DNA from: an uncultured Lewinella sp.
GTDB taxonomy: Bacteria > Bacteroidota > Bacteroidia > Chitinophagales > Saprospiraceae
Assembly (NCBI GenBank): GCA_964558465.1
Contig: CAZLEF010000020.1
Span: 19,723 to 83,722 of the forward strand
Direction of reading: 5' to 3'
DNA: 64,000 nucleotides
This document shows, one piece after another, positions 11,755-27,100 of this stretch. The notes beneath the pieces were generated by a model. The model saw only the letters and a list, made by a program, of their open reading frames with translations, ran no database searches and was not told where the DNA came from. Position 1 is the stretch's first letter, and each line of letters opens with the position of its first letter. A program made the position numbers and the translations under genes.

Positions 11755-11842
11755 GGAGGGATGGCAGAGCGGTTGATTGCACCTGTCTTGAAAACAGGCG
11801 TAGGTGATGAGCCTACCGGGGGTTCGAATCCCTCTCCCTCCG
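11755..11842 (+). tRNA. tRNA-Ser (anticodon UGA)
   Basis: Acceptor GGAGGGA/TCCCTCC, anticodon stem CCTGT/ACAGG with loop CTTGAAA, long variable arm CGTAGGTGATGAGCCTACCG, T-loop GGTTCGAATCC. No CCA is encoded. Confidence 0.9.
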
Positions 11843-11904
11843 CAGAATTACACCTTGGGTAAATCGTCTTTCCTGCTCATTGCAGCGATCTTTCTGTCCT
11901 TCCA

Positions 11905-12986: not shown

Positions 12987-13215
12987 CATAACGGTTTGCA
13001 GCTTGCCGATGTGGCGGAATTTTAGCTGTAATTCCTAAGGTTGATCAACTGTCCCACAATAAAAAGCAATGTCACTATTAACATTACTTTGTCTTGAAAG
13101 TCAACCGTGTAGTTGGGTGTCATTTGCCATAGCTGTTCGGTTGGCTTGCTGCCGTGCCGCCGTGCATTGGCTTTGCGGGCTGGCTGTTCGGCGGCATGGA
13201 CAGTAAACCGTTGTC
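12987..13215 (-). other. Composite attC-like junction (one E-type palindrome plus remnants of a second site)
   Basis: Gene orientation reads TAA-ATTCACC-GGACAAC-GGTT-TACTGTCCATGCCGCCG...CGGCGGCACGGCAGCA, then AGCCAACCGAAC, then about 120 nt, then CAAACC-GTTATGC. The central CCGCCG...GCTTTGCGGGCTGGCTGTT...CGGCGG block is homologous to sites at 17.8, 19.3 and 25.0 kb. Confidence 0.45.
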
Positions 13216-15474: not shown

Positions 15475-15625
15475 TCACTCCTTAATGTCTACTGGTATCT
15501 TCTTAGTCGCTTCGCCAATAATTTCTAAGCTGCGAACTATCGCCCGTTTTAGCACTTCGTTATCAATCAAGGCATCTTTGGTCATATCTGGCGATATGCT
15601 GTTATTGATAAATTCACAGTAACTA
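15475..15625 (-). pseudogene. HepT/DUF86 (HEPN toxin) internal fragment
   Basis: The translation ...EFINNSISPDMTKDALIDNEVLKRAIVRSLEIIGEATKKIPVDIKE* carries the RxxxxLEIIGEA signature of DUF86. The N-terminus is cut by MITE copy A, and the C-terminal RxxxxH half is missing. Confidence 0.5.
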
Positions 15626-16104
15626 CCCAGTCCCCCAAAGCTATAAAAAATTGACGGAATAAGGTTAACCTGGCAGGCATAAAATCCAGGGCCTTATGCC
15701 AGGAATTTCCAGCCCATACGCCGGGATGAGAAAGACACGCCTGATCCGCAAGATTGAGGCGCTGGAAAGGTATTGCCGGAGTCTGGAAAAAGCCAACCAG
15801 GCAGGTATTTCGGGAGGTGAAGTTTTGTACATGGACAAGGAGAAAGCCAGGTTGATCGGGGAATTACTGAAGCGGGATCGGCTGGTAGCTTCCCTTTCCA
15901 AATTGGTCAGAAAATAAATGTATTCAATGCACTCAAAAATATTTTTGAAGGAATTATCCCGCCAGTCCAGTATCCGAAATTGGAATAAATAAAAACACTC
16001 CAAAATTATCCGCAAAATATTATGGTTTATTTTTGAAGCCTCCGGAAATCATCTCCGTGAGATTAGGCCCGCTTGTTTTGTTAACTTTTGGACTGGGTAA
16101 TTAC
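15619..16104 (+). mobile_element. MITE-like element, copy A (486 bp) with ~15-20-bp terminal inverted repeats
   Basis: The left end is GTAACTACCCAGTCC and the reverse complement of the right end is GTAATTACCCAGTCC. It is about 90% identical to copy B outside a divergent central segment and carries a coiled-coil ORF remnant (15696..15917). Confidence 0.65.
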
Positions 16105-16139: not shown

Positions 16140-16766
16140 TCATTTGTCGCCAAACTTGACCAGCCCCCAAACTCCTAACAGCCATAGTCCCAAAGCAAGC
16201 GGCCAGAATATTTCCAGATTATAATACAAGGCTTGGGCAGTTATAAGAGATGGGATAGATAATATAAAAGCCAATCCGACCCACCAGGGTGCTATTTTTT
16301 TTCTCATTATCGCTACACCTGCAATGATCCAGGCGAAGAAAAAGCACCAATTATACAGGAAGAGTCCCGACAACCAAATTAAAGTAGCTTCCGATTCTAA
16401 TCCATCATTTATCGCCTTCGGGTCCATCCCTGAAGCCACAAAGCCTGCGGATAAAGCTCGAAAACCAGAAATAAAGGCGATAAACGCTGTACCCAAAACA
16501 CCCAATACCGTTACCACGATTCCTGTGTTAGGAGACCGCTCTGCGATTCGTTGTCCCATGAAAATGAAAGTGGCCACAAAAAAAGGAACACCAATCGTCA
16601 TAATCAGGCCTTCGTATGAACTGACCCAGTAAAGTTCACCCGGAAGCGTTCCAATTCCAAATGCCCTTACTACCGATGCAATAAAAAAGCATAATGGCGC
16701 AACTAACGCCAGCATGGGCAATCGCTTCCGAAAAGTTCTCACCCATTTGTCATTCTGATTTTCCAT
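16140..16766 (-). CDS. Integral membrane protein (about 6 TM), unknown function
   Basis: ORF 16140..16931. The upstream third is encoded by the attC-like palindrome, so the start MENQNDKWVRTFRK at 16766 is more likely. Confidence 0.55.
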   Translation of the reverse strand: MENQNDKWVRTFRKRLPMLALVAPLCFFIASVVRAFGIGTLPGELYWVSSYEGLIMTIGVPFFVATFIFMGQRIAERSPNTGIVVTVLGVLGTAFIAFISGFRALSAGFVASGMDPKAINDGLESEATLIWLSGLFLYNWCFFFAWIIAGVAIMRKKIAPWWVGLAFILSIPSLITAQALYYNLEIFWPLALGLWLLGVWGLVKFGDK

Positions 16767-16811
16767 TTTGTTTTGTTTTAAATTAATTATTCCTGTTTTC
16801 TTCTTATTTAC

Positions 16812-16941
16812 CGCTAACGTTTGTGTTTCTGCAGTGGTGCCTTCCCGAAGCCGCGTCCTGTCCCACGACACCAAGCGTTGAGCGAAGATAAAACTAAAAA
16901 CCAACTCGTCACGGCACCATTGCAGAAACATTTTGTTGTGA
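16812..16941 (-). other. attC-like site (~130 nt)
   Basis: Gene orientation reads TCACAAC-AAAA-TGTTTCTGCAATGGTGCC-(~71 nt)-GGCACCACTGCAGAAACA-CAAAC-GTTAGCG, with an 18-bp stem carrying one mismatch. R'' matches GTTGTGC at 17797-17803 in 6 of 7 positions. Confidence 0.6.
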
Positions 16942-16948
16942 GTAGTTT

Positions 16949-17770
16949 TTACTTGTAGTATTCATATTCAAAAAAATCCGGAATAAATCCACGGACACTT
17001 TTTAGTAGTCCGTTAGGGTAATAGAAGTATGTCAATTTTGCATTCCACGTCCTATCATTCATAAACACCTGATTGATGTCAGAGCTTATGATTTGTCCCC
17101 TTGAATTAAAACTGTTGGCACATACAGTATTGCTGTTAAAGTGTTGAAGGTCTTTGTAGTCGGAATACTGAACTTTGGATGTGTCTTGTCCGACAACCAT
17201 TAGCCCGTCTTTAAGCTTGGGCTCCCAAGTATATCCATACCATCGTTTTGTATAAAAGTCGTTTTCATACTCTGTTGTCATGTGATAAACTATAAGAGTG
17301 TCTCTTCGTTGGGTTTTTATTGATTTAAAGGGCTCGTAATAATAGAGAGTCTCATAATTTGGGGAATCGGGGAATTTCTCTTGGAAGTCCTGAGACTTTG
17401 TCAACCTGCCCAATGAGTCATAGAAGAAAAGTGTGTAGTCAACTCCGAAAGAACCGTCAAAATAAGCAGTAGAGTCAATGATTTGAATCAATCTCATGTT
17501 TGAGTCATATTTGTAATGCTTTGTCCCTTCTATTCTTTTATTTTTTCGAGTTTTCCCATTGTATGATGCGCTGTATCTAATAGAGCGAATTTTACGTCCA
17601 TCTTTGTCCAAGTAAGTTATCTCTGCTAAATCTCTTGGTGAGTTCTCAAATCGAGTGATTTTTCTCACACTCCTATTTTTATAAATGCTGTCTGGTTGGG
17701 AGCTATTTTCGCTTTGTCCGTAAACACTACTTGATAAAGTGAAACATATTAGTATTAAAACTTTATTCAT
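16949..17770 (-). CDS. Secreted protein with YD/RHS-like repeats
   Basis: ORF 16949..17815 (GTG). The likely start is MNKVLILICFTLSSSVYGQ. Repeats are of the form HYKYDSNMRLIQI and FFYDSLGRLTKS (YDxxGRL-like). Confidence 0.5.
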   Translation of the reverse strand: MNKVLILICFTLSSSVYGQSENSSQPDSIYKNRSVRKITRFENSPRDLAEITYLDKDGRKIRSIRYSASYNGKTRKNKRIEGTKHYKYDSNMRLIQIIDSTAYFDGSFGVDYTLFFYDSLGRLTKSQDFQEKFPDSPNYETLYYYEPFKSIKTQRRDTLIVYHMTTEYENDFYTKRWYGYTWEPKLKDGLMVVGQDTSKVQYSDYKDLQHFNSNTVCANSFNSRGQIISSDINQVFMNDRTWNAKLTYFYYPNGLLKSVRGFIPDFFEYEYYK

Positions 17771-17796
17771 CGGTCTGTCCTGTCCGTAAAAATTGC

Positions 17797-17884
17797 GCAC
17801 AACGGTTGCACTCACGCATACCGCCGCCTGCGTTGGCTTTGCGGTTTAGCTTTAGCGGCGGTTGGTGTGAGTGTGGTGTTGGCT
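17797..17884 (-). other. attC-like site (88 nt)
   Basis: Gene orientation reads AGCCAAC-ACCA-CACTCAC-ACCA-ACCGCCGC-(27 nt)-GCGGCGGT-ATGC-GTGAGTG-CAACC-GTTGTGC. It overlaps the last 24 codons of the TIR ORF. R'' is the exact complement of GTTGGCT at 19289-19295. Confidence 0.7.
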
Positions 17885-19269
17885 GCCTTCTTTATTTCTC
17901 TGTGAGCCATAAACAGAATTATCCCCCAAAATAAATGATGAGTTGATGATGAAATCTGTTGTAAGGTCATGCCATTTCCAGCAAATATACTTAAAAAGTC
18001 ATAAACGCCAAACTTTGCATTTGAAATATTTATTATTACAAAAGTCAAAGTCAATATCGCAAGCAATCTTTGCTTTTTTAATATTACAATCAAAATTATT
18101 GAAATGCCTAAAAATATAAATTGAGAAAAATTCCATAACATTTCGTTGATTATCCTTTGCTTGTCAATATCAATATTATCGTATCCAAATTTCCATATAA
18201 ATTCCGAAAACAACGATAAGATAATTTGAAGCATACAAAGTAATTTCCCAAAAAAATTTCCGTATAGGCTAAACAAAACAGAAAAACATAACATTTCAAT
18301 TAACATCGGTAAAGTAATGACTAATGGGTCATAAAACAAAGTAATTATACTGTTATTTTCATTTATATTATCAGCCCAGTATCCGTAATAGACAAAACCA
18401 AGAAACACTAAAATACAACTTATACACCCTATCAATAATAAATTACTTTTACCTTCTAAACTAGTAAAATTAAGTCTTTCCATTGCTCTTGAAAATACAC
18501 CATGCTTTTCAGTAAGATTGTTTTTATGAAAATTTTGGTTAGTGAAGCCTAAAAAAATAAGGAGTTGCTCTTTATCTTCAGCAATTTGAATCCTTTTTAA
18601 TAAATAAGGAATACTTTCAAAACTAAATTCATTACCCTTCAAAATAAATATTTTTCTTTCACCTTTACTGTTAATGTAAGTTTCATTATAAAAAGTCTCA
18701 TATTCTGATTTTACCCATTCTGACTCCATTGAGTTTTTTGATACAATCAACAGGAAATGTGTACTATTCTTTAACGCATTGCTTATATTAGTAAAATAGG
18801 AGTTACCAATATTACTTTTTAAAGACTCATGTGAATAAAAAACCTTGTAACCATGTTGCGTCAGGTGTTTCCATATTTCATCAGCAAAGTGCGTATCAAA
18901 CGACGAATAGCATAAGAAAATATCATATACTTTTTCACCCACTTCTGCAATTAACGTTGTTTTGTTTATTTTTTCGCTTACTGTTTTCTCAATTAAATTG
19001 TTATCCGGTATCGCTTCTATCAGTTGAAGCAATGAATGCCTTATCCTATTTTTTTCAATTGATATACCTCCTTCGCTTATTATTCCAGCATTAATTTGTT
19101 TCTTTAAATCTTTGTGCCTTCCTGAAATTAAAATTAAATTATTATATATATCATTTAAGTCAATGGTGATGCTTTCATCATTATATAGTTTTAATGAAGT
19201 AATCATTTTCTCTATTAACAAATCTATGCTATCTTCTTGGATTAGTATCTTTAAATTTTTCTTATCCAT
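17812..19269 (-). CDS. TIR-domain protein with N-terminal helical adaptor-like module and C-terminal multi-TM region
   Basis: 485 aa. The TIR core is YDIFLCYSSFDTHFADEIWKHLTQHGYKVFYSHESL...LLIVSKNSMESEWVKSEYE. Residues ~275-460 form about 5-6 hydrophobic helices. Confidence 0.8.
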   Translation of the reverse strand: MDKKNLKILIQEDSIDLLIEKMITSLKLYNDESITIDLNDIYNNLILISGRHKDLKKQINAGIISEGGISIEKNRIRHSLLQLIEAIPDNNLIEKTVSEKINKTTLIAEVGEKVYDIFLCYSSFDTHFADEIWKHLTQHGYKVFYSHESLKSNIGNSYFTNISNALKNSTHFLLIVSKNSMESEWVKSEYETFYNETYINSKGERKIFILKGNEFSFESIPYLLKRIQIAEDKEQLLIFLGFTNQNFHKNNLTEKHGVFSRAMERLNFTSLEGKSNLLLIGCISCILVFLGFVYYGYWADNINENNSIITLFYDPLVITLPMLIEMLCFSVLFSLYGNFFGKLLCMLQIILSLFSEFIWKFGYDNIDIDKQRIINEMLWNFSQFIFLGISIILIVILKKQRLLAILTLTFVIINISNAKFGVYDFLSIFAGNGMTLQQISSSTHHLFWGIILFMAHREIKKAANTTLTPTAAKAKPQSQRRRRYA

Positions 19270-19390: not shown

Positions 19391-20548
19391 TCATTCATAC
19401 ACTTGGATGTTTCGGAATTCAACATTATCGCTTCCCGTCCCAGTATGACGCCGATTGATTGTCATTTGCAATTTTGAAATGACCTTTACAGGGATACCGA
19501 CTTGCCCGAATTCAATATTAATATCAACAGGGTATCCTGCAACAATAGTTTTTTTTGTGCCGTAGTAAGCACCTCCACCAGTTTTCCCCCCTATTTCGAT
19601 ACTGATAGGATTAAATTCTTTACCAGAATCCCCGTCAAGAACTCTTGTTTTATCCTTTCCAAAAACACTTAATTCTACATCCATATCCTCGCTTTGAACT
19701 TGACAATTACATCGAATAATTTGCTAAAATTGACTACATTTTTTAAGTTTAAAAGTTAATTCTCCAACTTTTGCTGTCTCTCTTGGGGTTAATTTAGGTG
19801 CTTCTGATCTGGCTTTGCTTACAGTTTCTTTTTGACCTATTCCATTGCCTATAAGGATGTTCCTAAATTCTACCTTATTACTTCCAGTTCCTGTATGGGC
19901 TTGATTAATCGTCATTTCCAGTTTTGAAATATTTTCAACTGGAAAAGTCACGTCTCCAAATTCAATTAATATATCTACTGGGTATCCTTCGACAATAGTT
20001 TTTTTCGTTCCATAGTATGCACCACCTCCGGTTTTTCCACCAATTTTGATACTGATAGGATTGAATTCTTTACCAGAATTTCCATCTATTATTCTCGTTT
20101 TATCCTTCCCGAAAATGCTTAAATCCACATCCCTATCTTCACTCTTTACTTTACAGTGGCAAGAAATGAATTGCTCGGTTTGATTACAACCTACAAGGTT
20201 AAAGGTTAAATTACCGCTTTTTGCCGTACTGGAATTAATTTGTTGAGGTGTTTCGGGTTGAGGTTTAACTATCTCCGGTTCTGGGTAGATTTTTTCTTCA
20301 CTTGAAACTGGCAAGTCTTTTCTTGGTTTTGAATTGGCTTTGGGTTCAGTCGAATTGCCTTCTTCTAATGACGATTGTGTTTGCGAGCCAGTATCTAAAG
20401 AGACACCTCGTGTTTCTTTTTCAGTCATTTGCTGTTTCTCTTGGGCTTCTTGGTATTTTTGATATTTTAAAACTAGAATCCCACCAACAACTGTGATGAA
20501 AAGCCCAATAATTATCTCTTTCAAATAATTTTTCCGTTCAGTTGACAT
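19391..20548 (-). pseudogene. Membrane-anchored protein with two ~95-aa tandem domains, interrupted by one in-frame TAG
   Basis: ORFs 19724..20548 and 19391..19684 are in the same frame. The junction reads ...ELTFKLKKCSQF*QIIRCNCQVQSEDMDVELSVFGKDKTR, which parallels LTFNLVGCNQTEQFISCHCKVKSEDRDVDLSIFGKDKTR in repeat 1. Confidence 0.6.
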
Positions 20549-20666: not shown

Positions 20667-21413
20667 TTACATCCCTCCACATAACGTCATTCTTGTCATA
20701 ATGTGGATACAATAAAAATAGTTTGCTACTTTATATAATGCATCTGAAACATCTTCTAAGACTTTTTCATCTTCTTGAAAAGCGTCCGTTATTTTATCAT
20801 TTTCATCAACCTTCACAAATACTTTTTGCCCAAATTTCCTTTTTTTATCCCCGCTTTGGATTTTCTCCATAAATTTTGTCAATGTATCAGCATCAAATCT
20901 TTTCATAGTGAATTTATGCTTGTCCAAGGAAGTGTCTTTTGTCACAGGATATCTAAAAAAAGAACTATCCCTATCATACTTACAAATGATTGGAAATAGA
21001 TTTGAGATTTTTTTTACCTCTCGCCAATCTCCTTTCGGGGCAATTTTTTCTAATTTTTTTTTATTTTGTTTCAATAACTGGTTAAGCCAATAATCGTAAA
21101 GTTCATCAATCCAATGACAAGTATATAATGGTCTCCAAGCTCCGCCTGTAAAAATTTTGGGGTTATCACTTTCAAATGAATCTTGATCATAGTTAATTTC
21201 TAACTTTTTATGAAAAATCACTATTAGTGACTTCAGATATAATTCAATAGAATGCCTAAATAGAAAATTTTCGGGCATCTCCCTTTGTTGAATGACATCA
21301 TAATGTTCATGATGATTATTTCTTAAATGTTCAGCACTTTTAAAATAGGAATCACCCGTAATCCCAAATCCGAAATCGGGATGTAGTTCAATCCCGGACA
21401 TTGTGTACATCAT
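20667..21413 (-). CDS. Hypothetical alpha-helical protein (weak HEPN-like impression only)
   Basis: 248 aa with an N-terminal helix NFLFRHSIELYLKSLIVIF and a later SSFFRYPVTK. I could not find a canonical Rx4-6H motif. Confidence 0.4.
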   Translation of the reverse strand: MMYTMSGIELHPDFGFGITGDSYFKSAEHLRNNHHEHYDVIQQREMPENFLFRHSIELYLKSLIVIFHKKLEINYDQDSFESDNPKIFTGGAWRPLYTCHWIDELYDYWLNQLLKQNKKKLEKIAPKGDWREVKKISNLFPIICKYDRDSSFFRYPVTKDTSLDKHKFTMKRFDADTLTKFMEKIQSGDKKRKFGQKVFVKVDENDKITDAFQEDEKVLEDVSDALYKVANYFYCIHIMTRMTLCGGM

Positions 21414-21435: not shown

Positions 21436-21500
21436 AGCGAACGGGGGCATGGACGACATGGCGACGTTTAGGAGCCATGTGTGACCATGCAATGTTGTCA
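21436..21500 (-). other. attC-like site (65 nt)
   Basis: Gene orientation reads TGACAAC-ATTG-CATGG-TCACA-CATGGC-(11 nt)-GCCATG-TCGT-CCATG-CCCCC-GTTCGCT. The TGA of R'' is the ATPase stop codon. Confidence 0.7.
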
Positions 21501-22673
21501 GATTTTTCCTTGCATGTTTAATAGGACATACGGTTTCATCATTGGATTATAAAATCTGTATCTAATGTTCTTACCATTTCCTAGTTTTTCAAGGAGTAAT
21601 CCCCTTTCTTCATGGCATAATTTACCTAAATTATGGGTAATATTTTCACGAATTGAGTTTTTTCCAGTAATCCGATTAAATTCTTTTAGTATCTCACTTG
21701 TCGTAAAAGAATCAAACTCATCTGTTTTACACATTGCACATGCCTGTACAACAGGTTTCCATTGAGAATTAATAGAAGATGATTGAATTGCTTTTCTATA
21801 GGATTCTCGTAGTTGTTCGCTGGCATTCTCTATTGCTTGTCTAATGGCAGAATCTAATTCAGAATTACCAACTTTGGTATAATTACGGTCAAGTGCCCTT
21901 TGAATTGAGTATTTACATAACAAATGTGTATAATGAGGAAATCCAGAAGAAAATTTTACTATTTTACCAGTTATTGATTTTATTATTTCCATCTCTAAAT
22001 CAGCAAACCCTTTCTCGACAATCTCTGTAAGTTCAACATCTGACATTCTTGGCATCTTTATTTGCATTAAGCATCTTTCTAATGATTGATGATTTCCAAT
22101 CAAATTGCTTACATTTTCAGCGATACCAACAATCATTATTTTTATATTCCTAGAATTGTCCGACAAAGATTTTATCAAATCAGCGAACTGAACCCTAGTA
22201 GGTTGATTTTTTATATTATCAAATTCGTCAAAAATGAATAAAAATTTGTTTGAAGGGAATTGTCGCAAACAATTATATATATCGTAAGGCATTAGATTTT
22301 CAATGCCTGCTATATATTGGTTTAGCGAAATTAATTTTTGTCTGGTTTGTGGATTAAATCCAATTCCCTGGGTAGTTGTCGTGAATTGAACTTCACTTAA
22401 TGCCCGTTCCCATAAGTTCTTAAAATTATCAGAACTTCCACAGGTTACTTTTACGCTATAAAGATTTGTAATCTTTTTTTGAGTTATATTTGCCATTGAT
22501 GTTTTTCCTACTCCCCTTTCGCCAAATAAAATAGCATGTTGCCCCTCTTCATTCATAACTTGAACAATCCTTTTTAACTGCTCAATTCTACCCCGAAAGA
22601 AGTTTTCCTCCTTAATCGGAGACATTGGTGAGAATACTGTACTTAGTTTAAGTTTACGTTCTTCAATGTTCAT
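21498..22673 (-). CDS. AAA+ ATPase, ORC/Cdc6-like with C-terminal winged-helix-like region
   Basis: 391 aa with Walker A GERGVGKTS and Walker B LFIFDEFD, then a helical lid and a C-terminal RYRFYNPMMKPYV segment. Confidence 0.8.
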   Translation of the reverse strand: MNIEERKLKLSTVFSPMSPIKEENFFRGRIEQLKRIVQVMNEEGQHAILFGERGVGKTSMANITQKKITNLYSVKVTCGSSDNFKNLWERALSEVQFTTTTQGIGFNPQTRQKLISLNQYIAGIENLMPYDIYNCLRQFPSNKFLFIFDEFDNIKNQPTRVQFADLIKSLSDNSRNIKIMIVGIAENVSNLIGNHQSLERCLMQIKMPRMSDVELTEIVEKGFADLEMEIIKSITGKIVKFSSGFPHYTHLLCKYSIQRALDRNYTKVGNSELDSAIRQAIENASEQLRESYRKAIQSSSINSQWKPVVQACAMCKTDEFDSFTTSEILKEFNRITGKNSIRENITHNLGKLCHEERGLLLEKLGNGKNIRYRFYNPMMKPYVLLNMQGKI

Positions 22674-22700
22674 TTTTCATTAATTTAAATTTCTGACAAT

Positions 22701-23285
22701 TTATAGCCGTGCATACGCCGCCCCCACCAACACTCCGCCTTACCCGAAGCAGTTAAGCGGGTGGCGGATGAACGAAGTTGAACTATGCCGCTTTACCCGA
22801 AGCAATTATGGGCATCGCATCCACTCCCCTGGTCTAAGACCGTGAAAAACCCAACTGCAAAATACGTCCCTTGCAGCGGAAAAGCAAGGATGGAGGCTTG
22901 AACCATAGAAAAAAATGCCATTTATCAACGATTTATAGGTGAATTGGATGCGTTCGGCAAAAAACCTCCAGCCGGGTATGTTCCCCGGAAATAAAACTGG
23001 ACAATTATCAGGTTTGGAGCTGTCACTAATCACGAAAAGTGTACCAGCAATTTGCACGGAATGCGCATGCGGCGGGCCCGCTGTCTCCATAGGAGTCCTT
23101 TGGACCGGGAGCAAGGCCCTTCTGGCTGGAAATGGATTGACCAAACCGGGGAACCGCCAGGAGCATGGCCGTTCCGTCGATGACTTTTAGCCTGGAGACC
23201 TTGCCCGGATCTTTTTCCACCTTTTGGCGTCAACCAGCCCGCAAGCGGGCGGGTAAAAAGGTGGACCAAAACCGGCGGCTTACGC
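22701..23285 (-). other. GC-rich ORF-less element U, copy 1 (attI-like site or structured RNA candidate)
   Basis: It is homologous to 26590-~27100, near-identical over the first 76 nt and recognisable for about 400 nt. There is no conserved reading frame, and indels break every frame. In gene orientation it ends ...GCACGGCTATAA directly before (A)TTGTCA, the 5' edge of the ATPase cassette. Confidence 0.45.
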
Positions 23286-23465: not shown

Positions 23466-24395
23466 TTATTCTATTTCAAAATGTTTCATTACTCGTAAAA
23501 CTCTCAATGTATTCCATCTACTTGGTTTGCCTGCTTTCTCCATGTTGACGTGTACCTGACCGGGATGAGCAGCTTGCATATTCCAAGATCCTTCATTGTT
23601 TCGTTTTGACTTCAGTACATCAATCGTTGCTTTCATTCTGTCGTCCCATTCAATTCCGGCATATTGAAAAAAATCCATAGCTCGAAGAATATCATATTTC
23701 CATCTGCATGGATAAGTCAACTTCAAAAAGTCTTTATTAATAATTTGACCTGTTCGGTCAGACAAAAATAGTTGATGTAACAAAATAAATTCAATTGAAC
23801 TTTTTTGAGCGCTGAGAATTGCGTTCTTTCTATAGGTGTATCCGGCTTTTTGAAATTCTGTAAACCCTTCAAGTACGGATATTGTCGAGTGTAAGGAACT
23901 GTGTTTAGCTCCACTTCTTGTTGTCCTGCAGTTAAAACCTCCATCTGGCATTATCTCATTTAATAAACAGTCAATAATGGAATGCATCTTTTTTTCAGAT
24001 GTTTTGAAATACGAAGCGTAATTCAAAAACATTCCATTTACACAAACATCACTATGCTGTGATGTAGATGGCCCCAATTGAATTCCTCCATCATCTGCTT
24101 TGTTGTTTTGTAAAATCATCTCTATAGTTTCTTGTACAATCTCATTGCTTGAAGGGAGATTTAAATTGCGAAGGTCAAGTAAAGTGTAATGAGTGGAAAT
24201 CCATTTTGGTTGATAAAATCTATCGCCCCAATGACCGTCTGATTTTCGTTTGGATAAGTATTCATGACCCCAGCCTTCATTCGATATTCTGGCCTGAAGT
24301 TTCTTTTTTTCAACTCCCAACAAATCACGCCACACTTGGTATTGTATGGACACATCTCCTTCCAGCAGCCAATCGATGATTTGTTGATTGCTCAT
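23466..24395 (-). CDS. Prenyltransferase/terpene-cyclase-like alpha/alpha-toroid repeat protein (hypothetical)
   Basis: ORF 23466..24419 with likely start MSNQQIIDWLLEG. It has recurrent SDGHWGDR, PDGGFNCR and NEGSWNMQ motifs typical of such repeats. Confidence 0.45.
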   Translation of the reverse strand: MSNQQIIDWLLEGDVSIQYQVWRDLLGVEKKKLQARISNEGWGHEYLSKRKSDGHWGDRFYQPKWISTHYTLLDLRNLNLPSSNEIVQETIEMILQNNKADDGGIQLGPSTSQHSDVCVNGMFLNYASYFKTSEKKMHSIIDCLLNEIMPDGGFNCRTTRSGAKHSSLHSTISVLEGFTEFQKAGYTYRKNAILSAQKSSIEFILLHQLFLSDRTGQIINKDFLKLTYPCRWKYDILRAMDFFQYAGIEWDDRMKATIDVLKSKRNNEGSWNMQAAHPGQVHVNMEKAGKPSRWNTLRVLRVMKHFEIE

Positions 24396-24398
24396 TAC

Positions 24399-24912
24399 TG
24401 TAACTATCCAGTCCCCCAAAGCTATAAAAAATTAGCGGAATAAGGTTAACCTGGCAGGCATAAAATCCAGGGTCTTATGCCAGGAATTTCCAGCCCATAC
24501 GCAGGTATGAGAAAGACTCGCCTGATCCACAAGATCGAGGCGCTGGAAAGGTATTGCCGGAGTCTGGAAAAAGCCAATCAGGTAGGTATTTCGGGAGGTG
24601 AAGTTTTGTACATGGACAAGGAGAAAGCCAGGTTGATCGAGGAATTATTGAAGCGGGATCGGCTGGTAGCCTCCCTTTCCGAACTGGTTCGGCAGTTGCA
24701 AACGGAAAACGAAACCCTTGGGGAGCAACTGGAAGAACTGGTCAAAGCCAAACTGAAGGAATTATCCCCCCAATCCAGTATCCGAAATTGGAATAAATAA
24801 AAATACTCCAAAATTATCTGCAAAATATTATGGTTGATTTTTGAAGCCTCCGGAAATCATATCCGTGGGATAAGGCTGGCTTGTTTTGTTAACTTTTGGA
24901 CTGGGTAATTAC
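24399..24912 (+). mobile_element. MITE-like element, copy B (514 bp)
   Basis: It has the same termini as copy A (GTAACTATCCAGTCC ... GGACTGGGTAATTAC). It contains a 107-aa coiled-coil ORF (24477..24800) that is truncated in copy A. Confidence 0.65.
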
Positions 24913-24976: not shown

Positions 24977-25056
24977 AGCGAACTGTGGGCTTGCCGCCAT
25001 GTGTTGCTTTTGCAGGCTGGCTGTTTAGCGGCATGGACAGCCAGTCGGAGTTCTAC
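24977..25056 (-). other. attC-like site (80 nt, E-type)
   Basis: Gene orientation reads GTAGAAC-TCCG-ACTGGCTGTCCATGCCGC-(29 nt)-GGCGGCAAG-CCCACA-GTTCGCT. R'' is the exact complement of GTTCTAC at 26583-26589. Confidence 0.6.
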
Positions 25057-25106: not shown

Positions 25107-26561
25107 CTACAAATACTCATCAATCAACTCAATTAGTGCCATTGTAATCCTTGTTCTTTCTCTACTTGCATCATCATAAGATATTGTATTTGAATTCTCT
25201 TTTGTTCTTAATTCAGAAAATTGTGAATTATAAAGGATTGCCTTATTACGAGCTTCGTTATCCTCTACATCTTTAAAGGATGAAAGCAAGAGTGTCAAAG
25301 ATTTACCTATCTTTCCCTTTGAAATTAAATCTTGAATTTCTTTTTTTGAATGATTTGAGCTTAATGAATTGATATCAGATAATGGTTTGTCATGTACTGT
25401 ATCAATTGAAACATTATTTGAATTAACTACAATTGTGCTATTGCTAATATTTTCAAATTTATTGCCCATAACTGTTTCATTGATTTCAAAGTGAAAAAAA
25501 TCTTTGTATTTAAGTAGAGTTTCTTTTGAAATTTTACCATTCGCAATTTCATGAATTGGAAAATCAATTTTATCAAAATGAGTTATGTGCTCATCAAAAT
25601 CGCCCTCAATGACAAGTTCGCTTGAGCGAGAATATCTAAGAGCATAATCTTCTAACCAATTTACTGCCCTTTTCAATCCGTTATCCTTCCGATCTGGGTT
25701 AAAATAGCAAAAACTCATATTTTGATCTAAAATATTATTTCCTCGATAATACAAAATTACAATGCTTGAATACAAATCTTGATTATTTGAAGGTTTAATG
25801 AATTCTAGATTTTCAATATAAATACAATAGCGAGGGATTTCTTTATTAGATTTAATCAAGGAAAGTTCATTGGGAATAATTTTCAATCTGCCAATTAAGT
25901 TAACAATAAACCCTCCATTTTCTTTTATTTTTGAAATACAATCACGATATAAAGACATTTCAACAATTAGTGGTATTCCCTCATGACTTACACCTGTTGA
26001 AGATGCTCCTAAAATATAACATTCTCTACCATAAATAAATTTATTTGCCAATCTTAATGAACCAATACCTCCTTTTATCATATTCTCTTTGCCCTCTGGT
26101 GTATATTCTATTAACTGTTTTTGGGTATATCCTTCCTCACCAAGAGAATTTAAAATACTTTGAAACTCTTCAGAAGAATTTCGAAGGTTGTAACTTATCT
26201 GAGCATGAATTTTTTTTTCAAAAGCATCTTTATTGTAGAATAATGCTAGCCTTTGTGCATATCGTCTGCTATATATAGATTCATAGGTATAAAATAAGCC
26301 AGGAGATGTTGGTATCCATTCAGTCAAATGAAATTTTTCAAGCCTTATTATTTGCTCATTGTGACATTCATTCTCCAAGATAGATTTCCAAAAATCAAAA
26401 TTACTATTGAATATCTTGTCTGGGTTGTTTCTATTTTGAGTTTTGTTTTCAATATGAGAATACATATAAACATTTAGTTGATTTTTAATAAAATCAACTA
26501 AGTCACTTCTTACTATGTAAGCTTGATGACCTTTATCTATTAGAATATCATCTGCATTCAT
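25107..26561 (-). CDS. Large hypothetical protein with C-terminal helical adaptor-like module shared with the TIR protein
   Basis: ORF 25107..26690. The first 43 codons are encoded by element U, so the start MNADDILIDKG at 26561 is more likely. The C-terminus AILYNSQFSELRTKENSNTISYDDASRERTRITMALIELIDEY aligns with LILISGRHKDLKKQINAGIISEGGISIEKNRIRHSLLQLIEAI of the TIR protein. Confidence 0.55.
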   Translation of the reverse strand: MNADDILIDKGHQAYIVRSDLVDFIKNQLNVYMYSHIENKTQNRNNPDKIFNSNFDFWKSILENECHNEQIIRLEKFHLTEWIPTSPGLFYTYESIYSRRYAQRLALFYNKDAFEKKIHAQISYNLRNSSEEFQSILNSLGEEGYTQKQLIEYTPEGKENMIKGGIGSLRLANKFIYGRECYILGASSTGVSHEGIPLIVEMSLYRDCISKIKENGGFIVNLIGRLKIIPNELSLIKSNKEIPRYCIYIENLEFIKPSNNQDLYSSIVILYYRGNNILDQNMSFCYFNPDRKDNGLKRAVNWLEDYALRYSRSSELVIEGDFDEHITHFDKIDFPIHEIANGKISKETLLKYKDFFHFEINETVMGNKFENISNSTIVVNSNNVSIDTVHDKPLSDINSLSSNHSKKEIQDLISKGKIGKSLTLLLSSFKDVEDNEARNKAILYNSQFSELRTKENSNTISYDDASRERTRITMALIELIDEYL

Positions 26562-26589
26562 CTTTTTTATATTTTTCGTTTCGTAGAAC

Positions 26590-27100
26590 TTATAGCCGTG
26601 CATACGCCGCCCCCAACAACACTCCGCCTTACCCGAAGCAGTTAAGCGGGTGGCGGATGAACGAACCCCGCTACAAGGGGGCCGATGCAATTATGGGCAT
26701 CGCATCCAACTCCTTGATCTAAAGGCATAAAAACTAAGGTGCAAAATACACTTGTTGCGGCTGAAAAGCAAGCTTTTGGACTCAAACGTATGAGAAAGAA
26801 CGTCATCAATCAATGATTTATCCATGAATGGGTTGCGTCAGGCAAAAACATCTCCTGCCGGGCATATTCCCCGGAATTAAAAATACAACATGATAAGGCT
26901 TGAGGCAATGGATGAGCATGCGGCGGGGCCCGTTGCCTTGGTTCAACGGGGTTTTAACCAGAAATAGAAAGGCGAATCCGGATAACTGGCTGGAGCGTCC
27001 AGACGCCACCCCGGCGGCCCCGGCTTCATCACACCCACAAATAAAATTACCATTGTTGCCCAAAACCGGACATACCCTGTCCAATATCGGACAGAAGACG
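26590..27100 (-). other. GC-rich ORF-less element U, copy 2, at the array/core junction
   Basis: In gene orientation it ends ...GCACGGCTATAA directly before GTTCTAC, the 5' edge of cassette 25107..26561. The outer boundary toward 27.1 kb is fuzzy. Confidence 0.45.

Follow-up and report, generated by a model that had tools for sequence, protein, structure and literature searches.

Comparative genomics has led to the prediction that prokaryotic immune proteins are coupled through effector-associated domains (EADs) or Death-like adaptors, for which we found hardly any experimental tests in the literature. The EAD principle is one of homotypic recruitment (Kaur et al. 2020, PMC7159879). For EAD11, the source data to figure 6 of Kaur, Iyer, Burroughs & Aravind 2021 (PMC8195603) list the architecture LRR-AP-GTPase-COR-EAD11 for Haliscomenobacter and LRR-AP-GTPase-COR-EAD11-TIR for a Saprospiraceae bacterium; the outputs that they give for ROCO cores include TIR, two transmembrane segments (TM+TM), TCAD2, EAD8 and EAD11. 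Here we describe a 64,000-nucleotide stretch of DNA from an uncultured Lewinella sp. (contig CAZLEF010000020.1; hereafter the window, by which all positions are numbered), in which two genes on the same strand, 5.8 kb apart, each encode an EAD11 domain. One (25107..26561, minus strand) specifies a protein in which EAD11 follows a large N-terminal domain that we call the body, and the other (17812..19269, minus strand) specifies a protein of 485 residues in which EAD11 precedes a TIR domain and a transmembrane (TM) region. We suggest that the window holds a candidate EAD-coupled immune pair with a new domain as its core, the EAD11-TIR-TM protein being the proposed partner and effector.

The initial annotation had noticed that the C-terminus of the first protein resembles the N-terminus of the TIR-TM protein and had proposed that the common segment is an EAD; both points are borne out, and the family can now be named. 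Pfam EAD11 (PF19964) matches residues 405-482 of the body-EAD11 protein (25116..25349, minus strand; E 2.5e-16, 59.8 bits against a gathering cutoff of 26) and residues 2-87 of the TIR-TM protein (19009..19266, minus strand; E 1.2e-12, 48.1 bits, cutoff 26). A hidden Markov model (HMM) built from nine orthologous C-terminal tails matches the TIR-TM N-terminus with E 3.9e-5, the sole other match among 816 six-frame pieces of the window. The AlphaFold2 (AF2) model shows the C-terminal EAD11 as four helices (400-414, 418-430, 435-456 and 462-483) with a predicted local distance difference test (pLDDT) score of ~84-92, which makes it, as modelled, a compact helical domain and not a long coiled coil. 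With ~80 residues at the extreme C-terminus of the body-EAD11 protein and at the N-terminus of the TIR-TM protein, it fits a small all-alpha terminal domain. A multiple alignment puts the identity of the two domains at ~27-30%, with one insertion of 7 residues, and pairwise BLASTP of the two proteins gave nothing significant, so that the relationship is visible to profile methods only. Since both domains exceed the Pfam cutoff, the tail HMM cross-matches and the model is a compact four-helix fold, we conclude that the likeness is real and beyond chance.

Set against the EAD principle, the locus carries the same EAD on two proteins, one of the copies being fused to an effector (EAD11-TIR-TM). 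A six-frame HMM scan found no third EAD11 copy in the 64-kb window. A copy on a recognised NTPase or GTPase core (VMAP, iSTAND, GAP1 or AP-GTPase-COR) was not found there, and the NTPase encoded at 21498-22673, between the two EAD11 genes, has no EAD11 by Pfam or the six-frame scan.

The TIR-TM protein has the features expected of its name. Pfam TIR_2 matches residues 117-209 (E 1.5e-15) within a TIR domain that we place at residues 115-209 (18643..18927, minus strand), with the motifs DIFLCYS (116-122) and SEWVKSEYE (183-191). The latter includes candidate catalytic-site glutamates. The PADLOC models PDC-S66 and ThsB-like TIR both match the protein. Downstream of the TIR domain, a hydrophobic region (residues ~277-420; 18010..18441, minus strand) has about five TM segments predicted from Kyte-Doolittle hydropathy.

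The body-EAD11 gene is an intact open reading frame (ORF) of 484 codons plus stop, with an ATG at 26561. Longer TTG and ATG starts fall within a repeat, 'B', that is also found before another gene (see below). We take the ATG at 26561 as the likely start because orthologs begin at the same Met and the upstream in-frame codons lie in the repeat, where they are out of frame at the other copy. Orthologs of the protein are 47-60% identical to it and have the same architecture. A metagenome scan for such orthologs yielded only two, both short and frameshifted (L049 1-1405 and L050 34-1496); they are the closest metagenomic orthologs (~70% protein identity) and come from two different samples. They share a frameshift near residue 100, and DA replaces the conserved H193-E194, so they are probably decaying copies. 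The window ORF retains every family-invariant residue.

The body, of ~365 residues, had been set down by the initial annotation as unrecognisable, and it matched none of the libraries that we tried (Pfam, NCBIfam, PADLOC, PHROG and a PDB sequence profile). The domain proper covers residues ~15-365 (25467..26519, minus strand) and is modelled with a pLDDT mostly above 90. It carries the motifs EWIPxSPGLF (81-91), GKxxMxxGGIGSLRL (157-171), GASSTGVSHEGIP (185-197) and GDFDExxxHF (320-329), and in 158 full-length representatives K158, R170, D323, W82, G165, G195, E81, R99, S188, H193, D321 and E324 are 90-100% conserved. The Walker A motif GxxxxGK[ST] is absent from the 484-residue protein and no NTPase family matched; the protein thus lacks the P-loop that defines STAND and nSTAND proteins. 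AF2 models were made of the window protein (pLDDT 83.7) and of a homolog consisting of the body only (P0015, pLDDT 81.1). Foldseek searches of the body models against PDB (two models) and BFVD returned nothing at E<=1e-3; the top matches of both models are nucleic-acid-binding OB folds (the N-domain of AsnRS/AspRS, SSB, RPA70 and MCM). From the models, the body may well contain an OB-like beta subdomain, and as a whole it has no known counterpart. We also considered a likeness of GASSTGVSHEGIP to the GAGxS...GIP pattern of SIR2 and rejected it, as the segment is predicted to be strand-loop-strand and Foldseek gave no Rossmann or SIR2 matches. Body and EAD11 are joined by a linker (residues 366-400; 25362..25466, minus strand) modelled with a pLDDT below 50. 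It contains the MGNKFENISNSTIV... motif, which is conserved in the family alignment and follows the body across the family; the Gly-rich linker of the L030 proteins described below is related to it.

The body family is large. A word-indexed search gave 51 relatives, and a profile search gave 1405 cluster representatives (50% identity) at E<=1e-3, with 454 at E<=1e-30. In GTDB genomes it has loci in Bacteroidota, Acidobacteriota, Chloroflexota, Cyanobacteria, Planctomycetota, Verrucomicrobiota, Proteobacteria, Actinomycetota, Armatimonadota and two archaeal lineages. What stays constant in these proteins is the body, and the modules attached to its ends vary. The commonest, in 110 of 147 terminal extensions, is a conserved linker (MGDKFxNIxNSTIxNRS) followed by a helical tail of ~100 residues. 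We asked whether this tail is EAD11-like and discarded the idea (hhalign probability 0.1%). Other members place a TIR domain at the C-terminus (P0129, P0138, P0083 and P0113) or the N-terminus (P0132), or carry TIR-WD40 (P0100), CHAT (P0011, P0017 and P0029), an N-terminal caspase (L029) or TM tails (P0092, P0094 and P0089); further fusions are to XRE-type helix-turn-helix, TPR and HEAT modules. EAD1 is found at either end of the body (P0098, P0140 and P0151) and EAD7 in one protein (P0185), while body-EAD11 comprises the subfamily of the window and the distant P0102 and P0144. EAD1, EAD7 and EAD11 thus take the same terminal positions on the body as known effectors do.

Around 35 body loci in GTDB genomes, an all-vs-all BLASTP comparison and a Pfam tally found no conserved neighbour. 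The genes are overwhelmingly solo, some lying in surroundings rich in restriction-modification (RM) and toxin-antitoxin genes, beside RM or PIN genes, at a prophage edge or near transposases. Two genomes have a TIR gene immediately before the body gene: in one (L030 7196-9478), 10 nucleotides separate the end of a TIR-TCAD2 gene from the body gene, and in the other (L034) a TIR-TPR gene is found 130 nucleotides upstream. The TIR-TCAD2 protein and its body neighbour share a 31-residue Gly-rich linker, NTGGGAYIxGxxNTGGGDFxGRDxN (77% identity, E 2e-12), and a similar linker is present in the caspase-body fusion; this segment may recur in the body family as a linker or as an element for recognition.

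Because fusion, adjacency and a shared adaptor converge, a Rosetta-stone argument points to a functional connection between body and TIR. Judged from sequence, the body-EAD11 and EAD11-TIR-TM proteins resemble the body-TIR fusions divided over two genes. The constancy of the body beside interchangeable effectors, the nucleic-acid-binding OB folds that head the Foldseek lists of both models and the solo state of the body genes also count in favour. Polarity supports the pairing, since a core with a C-terminal EAD11 and a TIR protein with an N-terminal EAD11 repeat the order of the ROCO-EAD11(-TIR) proteins listed in the source data of PMC8195603. EAD11 is also rare (5.8 billion clusters yielded four TIR-TM homologs, and body-EAD11 accounts for about a dozen clusters), which makes two copies within 6 kb unlikely to arise by chance. 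The initial annotation had read the two proteins as a sensor/effector pair. The coupling half of that proposal is plausible and is strengthened by the fusions, the TIR adjacency and the polarity; it is not proven, and the sensor half is presumptive.

We therefore suggest, with a probability of roughly 0.45, that the body acts as a core for sensing or switching and the body-EAD11 protein recruits EAD11-TIR-TM through a homotypic EAD11 contact. The two proteins would constitute a split, adaptor-coupled immune module within a horizontally acquired low-GC island, the 484-residue protein being its upstream sensing or switching component. The body, with its putative OB-fold-like subdomain and strongly conserved polar pocket, would detect a trigger, which may be a nucleic acid or a ligand resembling a nucleotide. 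The EAD11 at the C-terminus would then make a homotypic contact with its counterpart at the N-terminus of the TIR-TM protein, and docking would gather TIR domains at the membrane, leading to an NAD+-consuming or membrane-damaging suicide activity. Other lineages may hard-wire the same logic as body-TIR, body-caspase/CHAT or body-TM fusions. Of this scheme, we observe the two EAD11 domains, the body family with its domain architectures and the TIR adjacency in two genomes; how the EAD11 copies meet, which way the signal runs, what triggers it and what chemistry the effector performs are what we infer.

Several observations weigh against this proposal. The OB-fold matches are weak (~90-100 residues, probability up to 0.97, E 0.018-0.4), and the invariant polar residues (K158, R170, D323 and others) suit an enzyme as well as a sensor. 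The two EAD11 copies of the window are not mutual closest relatives (body versus TIR score 83, TIR versus P0192/P0193/P0102 108-113), and so do not follow the trend for neighbouring EADs to be closest relatives (Kaur et al. 2020, PMC7159879). At one locus (L044) the neighbours of an EAD1-body gene include a metallopeptidase, an EAD1-trypsin and an NB-ARC/TPR fragment, which puts it in the usual place of an EAD-tagged effector or signalling enzyme. The expectation that the two families co-occur elsewhere was not borne out locally: no partner was found within 10 kb of body-EAD11 orthologs (L001/L002) or of EAD11-TIR homologs (L042 and L043), the usable loci being few. The last of these, together with the solitary habit of body genes in general, would suit two independent single-gene systems that merely share an island, with EAD11 a popular domain in the lineage that serves self-assembly only. 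The divergence of the two copies fits this too, as does the use of EAD11 as an internal module in the ROCO-EAD11-TIR fusion of the published source data. The rarity of EAD11 and the separate body-TIR fusions and adjacencies, which indicate a functional link, make such independence unlikely in our view.

The same lack of special kinship between the two copies, the enzyme-like polar constellation and the EAD1-body locus with its EAD1-trypsin and NB-ARC/TPR neighbours would equally suit an arrangement in which both proteins are EAD11-tagged cargo that docks on a third EAD11 core elsewhere in the genome, likely of the ROCO type (LRR-AP-GTPase-COR-EAD11); the body would then be an enzymatic or signalling effector and TIR-TM a parallel one. 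The published principle places one EAD copy on an NTPase or GTPase core and the others on effectors, the only EAD11 cores that we found in the source data of PMC8195603 are ROCO-like proteins of Saprospiria, and a MacB-like gene in the flank of the island has its best relative in a Saprospiraceae metagenome-assembled genome (65% amino acid identity), which probably places the host in Saprospiria (Bacteroidota). We regard this arrangement as somewhat unlikely: the 64-kb window has no EAD11-bearing NTPase or GTPase, fusion of the body to TIR, CHAT, caspase and TM effectors and its usual solo state are awkward for a mere effector, and a C-terminal EAD11 is, in the same source data, the position on cores and not on TIR effectors. 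There is finally the question of whether the similarity arises from low-complexity helices, or whether the gene is a functionless, decaying pseudogene, for which one might cite the non-significant BLASTP comparison and the shared frameshift and lost H193/E194 of the two metagenomic orthologs. Both EAD11 domains score more than 20 bits above the Pfam curated cutoff, the tail HMM reaches the TIR-TM N-terminus independently, and the window ORF is intact with all family-invariant residues kept; we consider this explanation largely refuted and highly improbable. We thus retain the recruitment of EAD11-TIR-TM by body-EAD11 as our preferred reading.

Both genes lie in a ~15-kb low-GC island at ~11.9-27.1 kb of the window (GC 0.37, versus 0.53-0.54 in both flanks), which adjoins a tRNA-Ser gene (11755-11843) and has every gene on the minus strand. 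The body-EAD11 gene has the lowest GC of the island (0.288) and the EAD11-TIR-TM gene the second lowest (0.292). Comparison of gene order with the nearest relative locus (L051) was uninformative, as that locus holds only tandem MacB paralogs. The transcription units of both EAD11 genes are headed by copies of repeat 'B', which is ~500-600 nucleotides long and richer in GC (~0.49-0.51) than its surroundings. Copy 1 (22674..23275, minus strand) directly precedes the NTPase gene, the first in the gene string with EAD11-TIR-TM; copy 2 (26563..27069, minus strand), which aligns with it, is directly upstream of the body-EAD11 start codon. The copies share an exact 43-nucleotide core (22728-22770 and 26617-26659), are near-identical over the final ~80 nucleotides before an AT-rich leader and are ~75-80% identical, by eye, farther upstream. 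Repeat 'B' may serve both units as a promoter/leader or mark where a mobile element ends, and together with the low GC of the two genes it lends the pair minor support. A second repeat, 'A' (15616-16104 and 24397-24912; 94% identical, ~490 nucleotides), has one copy after each of two gene blocks, so that both blocks run from a 'B' to an 'A' (B...A), an arrangement suggestive of a tandem pair of cargo units that have their ends in common. Copy 2 of repeat 'A' contains a 107-residue plus-strand ORF (24477-24800) that is coiled-coil- or leucine-zipper-like, and a plasmid search with repeat 'A' gave no match.

A 49-nucleotide imperfect inverted-repeat element occurs downstream of a beta-lactamase-like gene (13155-13203) and of the body-EAD11 gene (24992-25040), the copies being 84% identical. 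We rejected an integron cassette array: the element does not fit the RYYYAAC...GTTRRRY boxes of attC, its folding z-scores are -0.5 and -1.6, and no integrase was found among the window ORFs scanned. A riboswitch or group II intron origin of the repeats was likewise set aside, since Rfam gave no match at the gathering threshold or at E<=1 and core folding z-scores were non-significant. Copies of the repeats were sought in GTDB genomes and plasmids and none were found.

Several other genes of the island deserve description. The TIR-TM gene overlaps by 4 nucleotides a gene for a 288-residue, probably secreted protein (16949-17815, minus strand; weak RHS-repeat hint), and next after this comes a gene for a 263-residue multi-TM protein (16140-16931, minus strand); the two may be co-translated partners of the TIR-TM effector. 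A 97-residue ORF (19391-19684) repeats the C-terminal domain of a 274-residue protein (19724-20548), and neither has a family match. This coincides with a 300-nucleotide duplication inside the window (19405-19704 versus 19855-20154, 75% identity). Between the EAD11 genes, a 391-residue P-loop NTPase (21498-22673, minus strand) matches nSTAND1/AAA_22 weakly, phrog_6841 strongly (E 6e-55) and the PADLOC candidate PDC-S59, and its gene is followed by one for a 248-residue protein (20667-21413, minus strand) with no family match; these may form a separate two-gene defence candidate. The 317-residue protein encoded between the repeat-bracketed units (23466-24419, minus strand) has only faint matches to squalene-hopene-cyclase repeats, an alpha/alpha-toroid-like hint.

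Both EAD11 and the EAD principle are already published, and the coupling that we propose follows a known scheme. The novelty lies in the core, an undescribed and widespread NTPase-free family tied to TIR, caspase and TM outputs, and here in split two-gene form. The family is absent from Pfam, NCBIfam and PADLOC and has at least 454 clusters at E<=1e-30 in at least ten phyla, including archaea. As a sensor, the body would represent a new receptor class with no need of a STAND or ROCO NTPase switch; as an enzyme, it would represent new effector chemistry. A bolder proposal, which we hold to be doubtful, is that the body founds a new class of innate immune receptors in bacteria and archaea that works independently of NTPases. 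It would be an OB-fold-containing sensor with a conserved ligand pocket, and the TIR, caspase/CHAT or membrane effectors that it activates would be fused to it directly or linked to it by Death-like adaptors (EAD1/7/11). Were this so, the window would hold a naturally split two-gene version in which receptor-adaptor-effector logic is directly testable. For homotypic recruitment as such, the locus offers a minimal two-gene test case with one adaptor on each protein.

In its pairing of a constant, presumed sensing module with variable TIR, protease or TM outputs, the body family resembles TIR-SAVED, TIR-STING and the ThsB-like TIRs of Thoeris; it differs from them in that we detected no similarity of the body to SAVED, STING or SLOG and found no cyclase or ThsA partner conserved in its neighbourhood. 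Metazoan Death-fold/TIR signalling, in which a helical homotypic adaptor joins receptor to TIR (MyD88, with a Death domain and TIR), offers a parallel that was drawn in PMC8195603; EAD11 has no link to Death-like domains in the published profile network, where it matched only itself, so the likeness to MyD88 is one of analogy and not of membership. The EAD-coupled ternary systems (vWA-MoxR/VMAP, iSTAND and GAP1; Kaur et al. 2020, PMC7159879) share with the window a small helical, non-catalytic terminal domain on two proteins of one locus, one of them an enzymatic effector. They differ in that the window locus lacks a MoxR, vWA, VMAP, iSTAND or GAP1 core, in that the intervening NTPase has no EAD, and in that the neighbouring EAD11 copies are not closest relatives. 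Compared with the ROCO-EAD11(-TIR) proteins, the core of the window is a ~365-residue domain without a P-loop rather than a GTPase/LRR protein, core and TIR belong to two different polypeptides, and a multi-TM tail follows the TIR. Yet, as far as the source data of PMC8195603 list them, the output modules of ROCO cores overlap those found on the body, and in both cases, within the same lineage, EAD11 stands at the C-terminus of a non-effector core and N-terminal to TIR.

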